Assembly (NCBI RefSeq): GCF_044324875.1
Contig: NZ_CP172185.1
Source of the DNA: Escherichia coli
GTDB taxonomy: Bacteria; Pseudomonadota; Gammaproteobacteria; Enterobacterales; Enterobacteriaceae
DNA length: 64,000 nt
Direction: 5' to 3' (one strand)
The notes under the pieces were generated by a model. The model searched no databases. It worked only from the letters and a program-made list of their open reading frames with translations, and was not told the DNA's origin. Below, piece after piece: positions 8,626 through 10,489 of this stretch. Each line of letters begins with the position of its first letter. Position 1 is the first letter of the stretch. The translations under genes were made by a program, and so were the position numbers.

Positions 8626-9306
8626 ACGTTAACAACGACCGACTCTTCACTGTGCAAAATTGTGTCAGGTAGTCCCTCTGCGTTCAATTCCAGGGTCTGC
8701 TTTGAGCGAGAAAGAGGGGACTATCCAGCAATGGAGATCACCCAAAAGAAAAAACCACCTGACTCCCTCGACAACCTTCATCCGGGCATTTAGCCTCAAT
8801 CAACATGTTTATATCTGTCAGGTTACTTCATGATGAAAACTGATCATCATCGTTGTTTTTGTTGCAATAGTAGAATACGCGTATTTATTCCTCCATCTCT
8901 ATTAATAACGGCAATAAACTGTTCACTTCACTGATATTTAAAATATGTATCCTTTTCAAGCTGTTCAGCGGCGTAAGAAAAAGTATTAATTATGAATTCG
9001 ACGATTTAACCATTTCAGTCTGATTGGTAATCATCTATGATTAATGCTGGTCTATTGATTACGCCAGCATTAACCGCTTAGGGATGTATTCTTCCTGTCC
9101 ATATAGCCCTCGAAAAAGAGAGAAAATAAAACTGTGTCCAATATTAATTTACCACTTCAGACCGAAACATCGGTGGAATTAGCAGGACGACTGGTACAGA
9201 AGGATGGTATAGCGTCATTTGTCGGGCATTCCATTGCCATAATAATGACAATTTTGAAGCAATAGCCGTGCTTCTTGATCATGTCTTAAAAATTATACCA
9301 TGAGCC

Positions 9307-9537
9307 TTATGAGGCATCATTTTTACTGACTGGTGTTAACTTTGCTATCATATAAACTCTGTTCTTAAAAAACGCGCCCAGAATTTTATATGATTTTCCT
9401 TGTTTTGCTGCCTGTAAAGAAATTTCTTTTTCAGTGCTGTCGATGGTTGAACCGACGGCAGTAATCGTTTTGGCGACGCTACTGAAGGATATTAAAGACA
9501 GTGTAACCACAACAATTAAAGAATAGATAATATTCAT
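9307..9537 (-). CDS. Small secreted DUF1471 (YhcN/BhsA-like) family protein
   Basis: Signal peptide MNIIYSLIVVVTLSLISFSSVA followed by the family-like GSTIDS...AAKQGKSYKI core; in an AT-rich segment. Confidence 0.55.
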   Translation of the reverse strand: MNIIYSLIVVVTLSLISFSSVAKTITAVGSTIDSTEKEISLQAAKQGKSYKILGAFFKNRVYMIAKLTPVSKNDAS

Positions 9538-9752
9538 GCTAATTCTCCTGACAATTGAGAGGATGAGTTTAATATACAAAGGCATTAAATATGAGTCATG
9601 TTTACTCCCTGTGAAAATAACCTTACTGTAATTAAACCTTCATCTCCTTCGGGGTGAGCAATGCAAAATATAATGCATCTTGCTATGCAAAACAGTGGAT
9701 ATAAATTTTCCTCGCGACCTATTTAATAAAACGTGAATATAAAAGTTAGTCT

Positions 9753-10304
9753 TCAGTTTGCAGATGCAGTAGGTCTGATGGTAATTTCGGTTGTATCAAC
9801 GCTTTCGGGAGATTCAATAATATGCCTTACAGCACGGGCAATATCCGCAGGTTGAAGTGCAACAGAACGGTAGGCGTCCATTGACTTCATGGTTTCCACA
9901 TGGGTAATGGTTGAAGCCAGTTCACTTTCTACAACCCCAGGATTTACGCAGGTCACACGGATTTTCGAGCTTTCCTGCCGTAAGCCATCCGAAATAGCCC
10001 GTACTGCAAATTTTGATGCGCAATAGACTGCGCCTGTGGGCACAACAGAAAGGGCACCAATAGAACCAAGATTGATTATCTGACCGGAACCCTGTGCTTC
10101 CATCACCGGAAGTACAGCGCCAATTCCCCAAAGTACACCTTTGATATTCACGTCAATAGTGAGCTCCCATTCATCTTGTTTTCCTGCTGCAAGCGGTGAA
10201 AGCGGCATAACGCCCGCATTATTGATAAGAACATCAACTCGCCCCCAGCTATCCAGCGCTACTTGCACGAAATCTGCCATGGACTGTCGGTCTGTGACAT
10301 CCAA
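9753..10304 (-). pseudogene. 5'-truncated short-chain dehydrogenase/reductase gene
   Basis: Translation begins inside the SDR fold (DVTD...NNAGV...YCASK active-site region) without the N-terminal TGxxxGxG NAD-binding motif; an in-frame stop lies immediately upstream. Confidence 0.6.
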
Positions 10305-10311
10305 CTTGCAT

Positions 10312-10475
10312 TTTCAGAAATGGGAGGCTGGGAGTCTATCGAAATGGTTCGTCGATATGCTCACCTTGCACCTAATCACCTTACCGAACACGCACGGCAA
10401 ATAGACTCAGTCCTGAACCCATCGGTCCCAAATTTGTCCCAGTCAAAAAAAAAGGAAGGTACTAATTATGTGTAA
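10312..10475 (+). pseudogene. 3'-terminal remnant of a tyrosine recombinase (phage-type integrase) gene
   Basis: Only the last ~50 codons remain ([22 protein letters not shown], containing the RYAHL catalytic-tyrosine motif); ends 15 bp from the thrW 3' end and abuts the truncated SDR gene. Confidence 0.55.
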
Positions 10476-10489
10476 CTTATTGATTTAAA

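Follow-up and report, generated by a model that had tools for sequence, protein, structure and literature searches.

We analysed a stretch of 64,000 nucleotides of Escherichia coli DNA (contig NZ_CP172185.1, hereafter the window) and found that the tRNA gene thrW is bordered by what is very probably a non-functional relic of an element that carried an integrase of the P22/Sf family, trimmed by a deletion that ran into the flanking genes. The 3′ end of the integrase gene is fused to a gene for a short-chain oxidoreductase (SDR) without its N-terminus. A sequence-only reading of the same DNA had described this fusion at the same place, with coordinates that hold to within a few bases, and homology now puts the junction at 10305/10306. 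It had further proposed that an element integrated at thrW and is now almost wholly gone, which our analysis supports. Features of the locus are collected in Table 1.

Table 1. Features between the LysR gene and thrW (positions in the window).
Feature	Position	Strand	Basis
LysR-family regulator, first of the two LysR genes of undeleted loci; left boundary	7741-8625	+	homology to annotated loci
AT-rich intergenic stretch, conserved flank, 681 bp, GC 0.39	8626-9306		locus comparison
ykgR-like pseudogene fragment (KLIIIVVFVAIVEYAYLFLHLY and stop)	8837-8905	+	PGAP in homologous loci; translation
Gene for small secreted-type protein, 92-codon ORF, likely shorter start giving 76 aa	9307-9585	-	ORF, colinearity
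5′-truncated SDR oxidoreductase pseudogene, residues 58-240 of 240	9753-10306	-	O157:H7 homology, NCBIfam
Deletion junction, 2-bp CT common to both sides	10305-10306		SDR homology ends at 10306, integrase homology begins at 10305
Integrase remnant, last 56 codons and stop, P22/Sf-family tyrosine recombinase	10305-10475	+	homology, Pfam, PGAP in relatives
Spacer from integrase stop codon to thrW 3′ end (phage-derived arm of att site), 14 bp	10476-10489	+	
thrW, tRNA-Thr(CGT), intact	10490-10565	-	ARAGORN; Rfam RF00005, 71.8 bits

The integrase fragment is convergent with thrW and stops 14 bp from its 3′ end; the open reading frame that contains it spans 70 codons (10263–10475). The adjacency had been recognised before from the sequence, with a gap of 15 bp and a fragment of about 50 codons; these figures have to be corrected to 14 bp and 56 codons. 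Positions 10317–10489 are identical in 169 of 173 nt (97.7%, E 8e-83) to the 3′ end of the gene for a full-length integrase of 372 aa in strain SCEC020026. On the protein level the fragment matches residues 319–372 of this integrase with 90.7% identity over 54 aa (E 8e-34), which supports the earlier view that the frame at 10312–10475 is related to integrases. The SCEC020026 protein is 99.7% identical to the integrases of the Shigella phages SfIV, SfII and SfI, 98% identical to that of SfV, and about 90% identical to those of the P22-like Salmonella phages ST64T, L and BTP1. Its gene is the last one of a lambdoid prophage (Cro/CI, ymfL, yfdPQR, xis-like HTH) and ends 14 bp from thrW, convergent with the tRNA gene and in the same orientation as the stub in the window. 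The 14-bp spacer of the window matches that of this intact lysogen in sequence and spacing. The Shigella phages named above are reported to use tRNA-thrW, directly downstream of proA, as their integration site and to carry int at one prophage end (PMC3306764).

While the full-length SCEC020026 integrase matches the Pfam model Phage_integrase (PF00589) with an E value of 5.7e-47, the fragment by itself gives a weak match (E 0.013) to model positions 152–172 of 172. It has kept the tyrosine nucleophile (RRYAHL; Tyr334 in full-length numbering), but the HxxR box (HDLRH, residues 299–303 in the same numbering) and everything upstream of it are missing. Of the complete catalytic domain (Arg, Lys, HxxR, His/Trp, Tyr) only the Tyr segment is left, and since the nucleophile is all that is kept, the stub should be unable to recombine DNA. 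We consider it, from its sequence, to be a remnant of a member of the P22/Sf integrase subfamily and not a functional member. The first 12 nt of the stub (10305–10316, CTTGCATTTTCA) match the stub found in strains 7/2 and N3 exactly and differ from functional Sf-type int.

A link to P4-type integrases and to the prophage CP4-6, as suggested by the sequence-only reading, did not survive alignment with the respective proteins. A blastp comparison of the fragment with IntF of K-12, the CP4-6 integrase, gave no match, and the comparison with the P4-like integrase of O157:H7 gave an E value of 4.9, which is not significant. P4-type integrases at thrW are co-directional with the tRNA and have their N-terminus proximal to it, whereas the stub in the window is convergent with its C-terminus proximal. 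The missing similarity to IntF and P4-like integrases and the opposite layout rule out a P4 or CP4-6 origin of the stub. Its proper label is thus P22/Sf-type rather than P4 or CP4-6.

On the other side of the junction, 183 residues of the SDR protein are encoded by 9753–10304 on the minus strand. This part has 98% nucleotide identity to the gene for the intact SDR of 240 aa in O157:H7. NCBIfam SDR models match with E values from 1e-41 to 1e-25 and align only from profile position 55–60 or so. The intact O157:H7 protein has the motif TGASSGIG at residues 8–15, whereas the copy in the window begins at residue 58. The fragment is thus without its first 57 codons, the TGxxxGxG cofactor-binding motif, the start codon and the promoter, and retains the YxxxK active-site region (YCASK in the translation). 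With its cofactor-binding fold missing, the SDR is predicted to be dead. The window matches the genome of O157:H7 str. F8092B up to position 10306 and then diverges, while 10305–10489 are identical in 180 of 185 nt to the stub of strain 7/2; the same start at 10305 is seen in a multiple alignment that includes N3. The two homologies overlap by the dinucleotide CT, a hallmark of an illegitimate deletion of the microhomology type.

The tRNA-Thr(CGT) gene is the sole tRNA gene that ARAGORN and Rfam detect in the 64-kb window, and no other Rfam family scored above the gathering threshold in the region. It can be assigned to thrW because proA (10680–11933) and proB lie beyond it. The 3′ 46 nt of thrW constitute the att core of elements that integrate here, and a 47-nt repeat of 10489–10535 brackets a P4-like element in O157:H7. 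thrW belongs to the most-used tDNA hotspots in E. coli (PMC7545054). In K-12 it is the site of CP4-6, as had been stated before and as the K-12 genome annotation confirms.

A direct repeat of the thrW 3′ end, which would have been the att scar expected from the sequence-only reading, was not found: two probes derived from this end, for which up to 3 mismatches were tolerated, a repeat search and blastn-short revealed no second copy of the core in the 64-kb window. These searches returned only the tRNA itself and chance matches of 13 nt or less. The location of the scar in other strains is informative. About 60 bp after the second LysR gene, yagP, O157:H7 has a scar that consists of a short integrase tail, the 14-bp spacer and 17 nt of the thrW core. 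Beyond this scar stand later elements, among them a P4-like satellite with a perfect 47-nt repeat of thrW at its ends. The flank is the same in K-12, where yagP represents the C-terminal part of this second LysR gene and is followed by the ptwF scar. Judging from this comparison, the deletion in the window probably ran past the boundary of the element and took the distal att repeat with it, which would be why the window has no att scar. The part derived from the element most likely comprises only 185 bp (10305–10489). The suggestion that the whole 1.8 kb is a leftover of the element can therefore not be maintained, as the rest is colinear flank in O157:H7.

In O157:H7 F8092B the colinear order is paoABCD, a MFS gene, an alpha/beta hydrolase gene, a LysR gene, the ykgR fragment, the small gene, the SDR gene and a second LysR gene. 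The SDR gene, the small gene and the AT-rich spacer all appear to be chromosomal flank and not remains of the element, since in O157:H7 the att scar comes only after them, with all three on its chromosomal side, and since K-12 shares the flank of this scar. Up to position 9069 the AT-rich stretch is also common to genomes that carry the GI-thrW defence islet. Its length, given earlier as about 680 bp, and its low GC content were described correctly; it is not wholly gene-free, as it harbours the ykgR-like fragment, which at the nucleotide level is 91.5% identical to the ykgR locus proper that most E. coli have. The small gene is colinear in O157:H7 with 94% identity and carries the PGAP label hypothetical protein. 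Its match to the Pfam family YdgH_BhsA-like (DUF1471, PF07338), to which the sequence-only reading had assigned it, is sub-threshold (E 0.084, 13.4 bits), the NCBIfam model BhsA gives E 0.0018 and 18.8 bits versus a cut-off of 90, and a PDB sequence search with the small gene gave no match.

A 60-bp probe across the junction detected it in 19 of 5426 complete E. coli genomes, 18 times with 100% and once with 98.3% identity. The three of these that were inspected (2012C-4221, PCN033 and M114) have the same gene order as the window, and PGAP annotates the two halves as "SDR family oxidoreductase, incomplete" and "integrase, incomplete, missing N-terminus". A second probe, which runs from the intact 5′ end of the SDR gene into the beginning of the neighbouring LysR gene, named yagP in the Sakai record, showed the intact pair in 389 genomes, mostly O157:H7 and O55:H7. 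The SDR-yagP module is accessory, being present in about 408 of the 5426 genomes. Considering the 19 genomes with the junction versus the 389 with an intact SDR-yagP pair, the fused state appears to be derived and rare, and not ancestral; the possibility that the arrangement is ancestral, which would have spoken against the reading from sequence, is not supported by these counts. No genome among the 5426 showed the immediate pre-deletion state with the window's allele of the SDR region.

Integrase stubs beside thrW exist in several further forms. Strains 7/2, N3 and 266917_2 have a longer stub of about 65 codons that belongs to the same allele family and adjoins thrW. Upstream of it are a broken HTH gene, a hypothetical gene and defence cargo, which consists of AbiE and a reverse transcriptase or of a type I R-M system; a gene of the ash family is annotated in the islets of 7/2 and 266917_2. 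The ST131 strain 4433 has the same stub together with ash, a hypothetical gene and type I R-M cargo, with no HTH fragment annotated. Altogether about 800 genomes, including ST131, carry the slightly longer stub of this allele family, as counted with a sequence that spans the region upstream of the longer stub and the 5′ part of the stub. In its position and R-M content this islet corresponds to the GI-thrW island described for EC958 (PMC4134206, PMC4659465). In M1/5 the stub is found at the far end of the vat island and was pushed away from thrW by a later integration. We rejected the idea that the window shares its truncation point with M1/5, as the M1/5 stub, just as the one in strain 7/2, continues upstream for about 26 nt more.

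K-12, O157:H7 and SM107 contain the last 18 or so codons of the ST131-type integrase allele next to a ptwF-type scar, with 94–96% identity. The ptwF flank of K-12 and O157:H7, which shows a 27-bp resemblance to the tail in the window, was also considered as native attB flank, and this was rejected; the flank represents an older integrase relic, since about 69 nt align at 94–96% with the tail of the ST131 stub. SM107 has undergone another deletion that fused the 3′ part of the SDR gene directly to the 3′ part of yagP. An integrase stub adjoins a thrW core in every lineage that was inspected (window type, 7/2, N3, ST131, M1/5, K-12, O157:H7 and SM107). The locus in the window is one of several independent erosion states of the thrW hotspot.

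These observations suggest the following history. An element with a P22/Sf-family tyrosine integrase would have entered the 3′ end of thrW, as homology and layout indicate, and its integration would have left a rebuilt tRNA gene with the 3′ end of int at a distance of 14 bp, as in present-day lysogens. Nearly the whole element has since been lost; comparison with the undeleted loci shows a deletion at the CT microhomology that joined int codon 317 to SDR codon 57/58. It removed the rest of int, any other element DNA, the distal repeat of the thrW core, the LysR gene yagP and, from the SDR gene, its first 57 codons. The starting point of this deletion may have been an already decayed islet of the GI-thrW type, with cargo, ash, a hypothetical gene, a broken HTH gene and a truncated int of about 65 codons, and not an intact prophage. 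By itself the 12-nt allele signature tips the balance towards such an islet, and we lean to this view with some reserve. Among the inspected part of about 646 matches, no full-length integrase with the CTTGCATTTTCA signature was seen.

A single step is conceivable as well, in which one deletion took an intact Sf/P22-like prophage of about 40 kb at thrW together with about 1.3 kb of flank, and no intermediate of the GI-thrW type existed. This variant concerns the starting point of the deletion and leaves the core of the history untouched. Intact prophages with Sf-type int do exist at thrW in E. coli, and over its 3′ 173 nt the stub has 97.7% identity to int as it occurs in live Sf-type phages and in intact prophages; this identity could reflect a fairly recent prophage or gene conversion. 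However, positions 10305–10316 have the degenerate signature of the stub allele and not that of functional int, and this widespread allele is itself cut off just some 26 nt farther upstream, so that we regard the single step as possible but not as the probable course. The SDR-yagP-small-gene module might itself be cargo of an older thrW element, in which case the junction would join two generations of island remains. The module is found in only about 408 of the 5426 genomes, its GC content is 0.35–0.48 versus 0.52 for the window, and in K-12, O157 and SM107 yagP is directly bordered by the 18-codon integrase tail and the thrW core. On the other hand, remnants of the module occur in distant lineages (yagP in K-12, the SDR-LysR fusion in SM107, O157:H7 and the window type), which fits ancestral presence with repeated erosion, and no att repeat or integrase was found on the pao-proximal side of the module within the window. 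We therefore consider an origin of the module as cargo unlikely.

That AT-rich stretch, small gene, SDR and integrase end, 1.8 kb in all, are the remains of a P4-type or CP4-6-like thrW island can hardly be upheld, even if CP4-6 occupies thrW in K-12, P4-like elements are present there in O157:H7 and the GC content of the region is low. As described above, the stub has no significant similarity to the K-12 IntF or O157 P4-like integrase, and P4-type integrases have the opposite direction relative to the tRNA. In addition, O157:H7 has the SDR gene, the small gene and the spacer past its att scar, on the chromosomal side, and the flank of this scar is shared with K-12 yagP. An artefact of assembly, with a chimeric junction that is not real, is virtually impossible, given that 19 complete genomes, which were sequenced independently and come from different hosts and countries, have the identical 60 bp. 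The reading that is left, a relic of a P22/Sf-type element at thrW that was cut back into neighbouring genes, accounts for the locus with high probability.

In every lineage inspected the integrase tail and the 14-bp spacer persist beside a thrW core despite many independent deletions. The tail could be kept since deletions closer to the tRNA would harm thrW expression or processing, or as a ready-made arm-type landing pad that would promote repeated capture of P22/Sf-type and other elements at thrW; we nevertheless strongly doubt that its persistence is other than neutral. A role as thrW terminator or structured RNA was rejected, as a terminator search in the integrase tail found no terminator-like site, its RNA fold was no better than that of shuffled sequences (z = 0.65), and Rfam recognised only the tRNA.

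The stub and the junction are already known in that public E. coli genomes mark both halves as pseudogenes, and an integrase stub beside the thrW core is not special to the genome of the window. The locus is a case of ordinary genome decay, a textbook example of serial integration and erosion at a tRNA hotspot, and matters little beyond annotation. Loss of the SDR gene and of its divergent LysR partner yagP marks one E. coli lineage, and the junction, with its 19 carriers among 5426 genomes, might be used as a clonal marker. The scar itself appears to be inert: its stub is not expected to catalyse recombination, and the locus should be unable to excise because it has no int, no xis and no second att site. 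With its att core intact and unoccupied, thrW is presumably open to phages of the Sf/P22 type and to thrW islands.

Compared to known systems, the window shares its integrase family with the serotype-converting Sf phages of Shigella flexneri (SfI, SfII, SfIV, SfV) and the P22-like phages (ST64T, L, BTP1), and with the Sf phages also the target tRNA-thrW next to proA (PMC3306764). The layout with int convergent on thrW is that of the Sf-type prophage in SCEC020026. Unlike these phages, the window has only 56 of the 372 int codons and no xis, phage genes, gtr genes or second att, and the first 12 nt of its stub represent a divergent, non-functional stub allele instead of Sf-type int. The K-12 prophage CP4-6 uses the same tRNA hotspot, and the LysR gene that the window has lost survives in K-12 as the remnant yagP; the ptwF flank of K-12 consists of an integrase-tail relic and the thrW core. 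CP4-6 differs from the window in its size of 34 kb and in its integrase, IntF, which has no relation to the stub and is encoded at the far end of the prophage. K-12 has undergone a deletion of its own, from paoD into yagP, an event separate from that in the window.

The GI-thrW islet has the same position as the relic in the window and the same truncated integrase allele family. The window, by contrast, has lost all cargo and about 9 further integrase codons, and its stub borders on the SDR pseudogene, while the GI-thrW carriers 7/2 and 266917_2 have neither the SDR gene nor the small gene and their islet abuts the AT-rich spacer at the equivalent of position 9069. The other carriers of the junction (2012C-4221, PCN033, M114 and 16 others) share it with the window in identical form and with few point differences, whereas the proA allele of the window is only 95.7% identical to proA of the PGAP-annotated genomes among them.

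Deletion in the SDR-yagP pair (yagP being the LysR gene beside the intact SDR gene) is not confined to the window. In strain SM107 the two genes are joined through their 3' parts (see table), and this fusion reflects a deletion independent of that in the window. The pair has been struck by at least three distinct deletions in separate lineages, namely the window type, SM107 and K-12. In O157:H7, K-12 and SM107 the sequence from yagP to the thrW scar consists of about the last 18 integrase codons, in the allele of the ST131 stub, and a 14-bp spacer. K-12 and O157:H7 thus also carry an integrase-tail relic at this place, and the retrieved annotation tables for these two hold no feature at that position.

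Features at thrW and in its surroundings (coordinates refer to the window or to the locus named)
Feature	Position	Strand	Genome or remark
Integrase-tail relic between yagP and ptwF-type thrW scar	L002 10927-11010		O157:H7
Integrase-tail relic between yagP and thrW scar	ptwF flank, intF to yagP, L009		K-12
Integrase-tail relic between yagP and ptwF-type thrW scar	L012 10884-10997		SM107
SDR 3' part fused directly to yagP 3' part	L012 10146-10825		SM107
ykgR-like pseudogene fragment	8837-8905	+	window; translation KLIIIVVFVAIVEYAYLFLHLY*
Swappable defence cargo	L006 1791-7005; L007 1-7008; L013 144-6110		AT-rich spacer to integrase stub
proA, proB	10680-13135		window

Within the integrase tail, the window and PCN033 share an A9 run (CAAAAAAAAAGG) at 10448-10456 and TAATTATG at 10466. 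The same two sites read AAAAAATAA and TAATGATG in functional integrases, in 2012C-4221 and in the stubs of M1/5 and of the GI-thrW strains 7/2 and N3; in the ST131 stub that stretch has diverged too far for a comparison. The differences alter two residues of the dead gene (N to K and D to Y).

Left of thrW, the DNA of the window is 99-100% identical to 2012C-4221, whereas its proA reaches only 95.7% identity to proA of the genomes sharing the junction, and the top match of its proBA among 5426 complete genomes is 98.2%. These identity values point to a recombination breakpoint at or near thrW, together with an unusual proA allele.

The AT-rich spacer, described as gene-free in the sequence-only reading, does contain a ykgR-like pseudogene fragment, with about 91.5% DNA identity to the genuine ykgR locus, which lies elsewhere and is present in most E. 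coli genomes. Directly upstream of the fragment is an ATG-ATG, one base out of frame, at an A-run. Elsewhere in the window, three copies of the Rfam family naRNA4 (CssrE, a REP-derived nucleoid-associated RNA) lie inside 1 kb (26114-27035, minus strand), with scores above the gathering score.

In other lineages, the cargo at thrW comprises an AbiEi/AbiEii pair with a reverse transcriptase of 1069 aa or, alternatively, a type I R-M system. The thrW locus is a small defence hotspot (GI-thrW).
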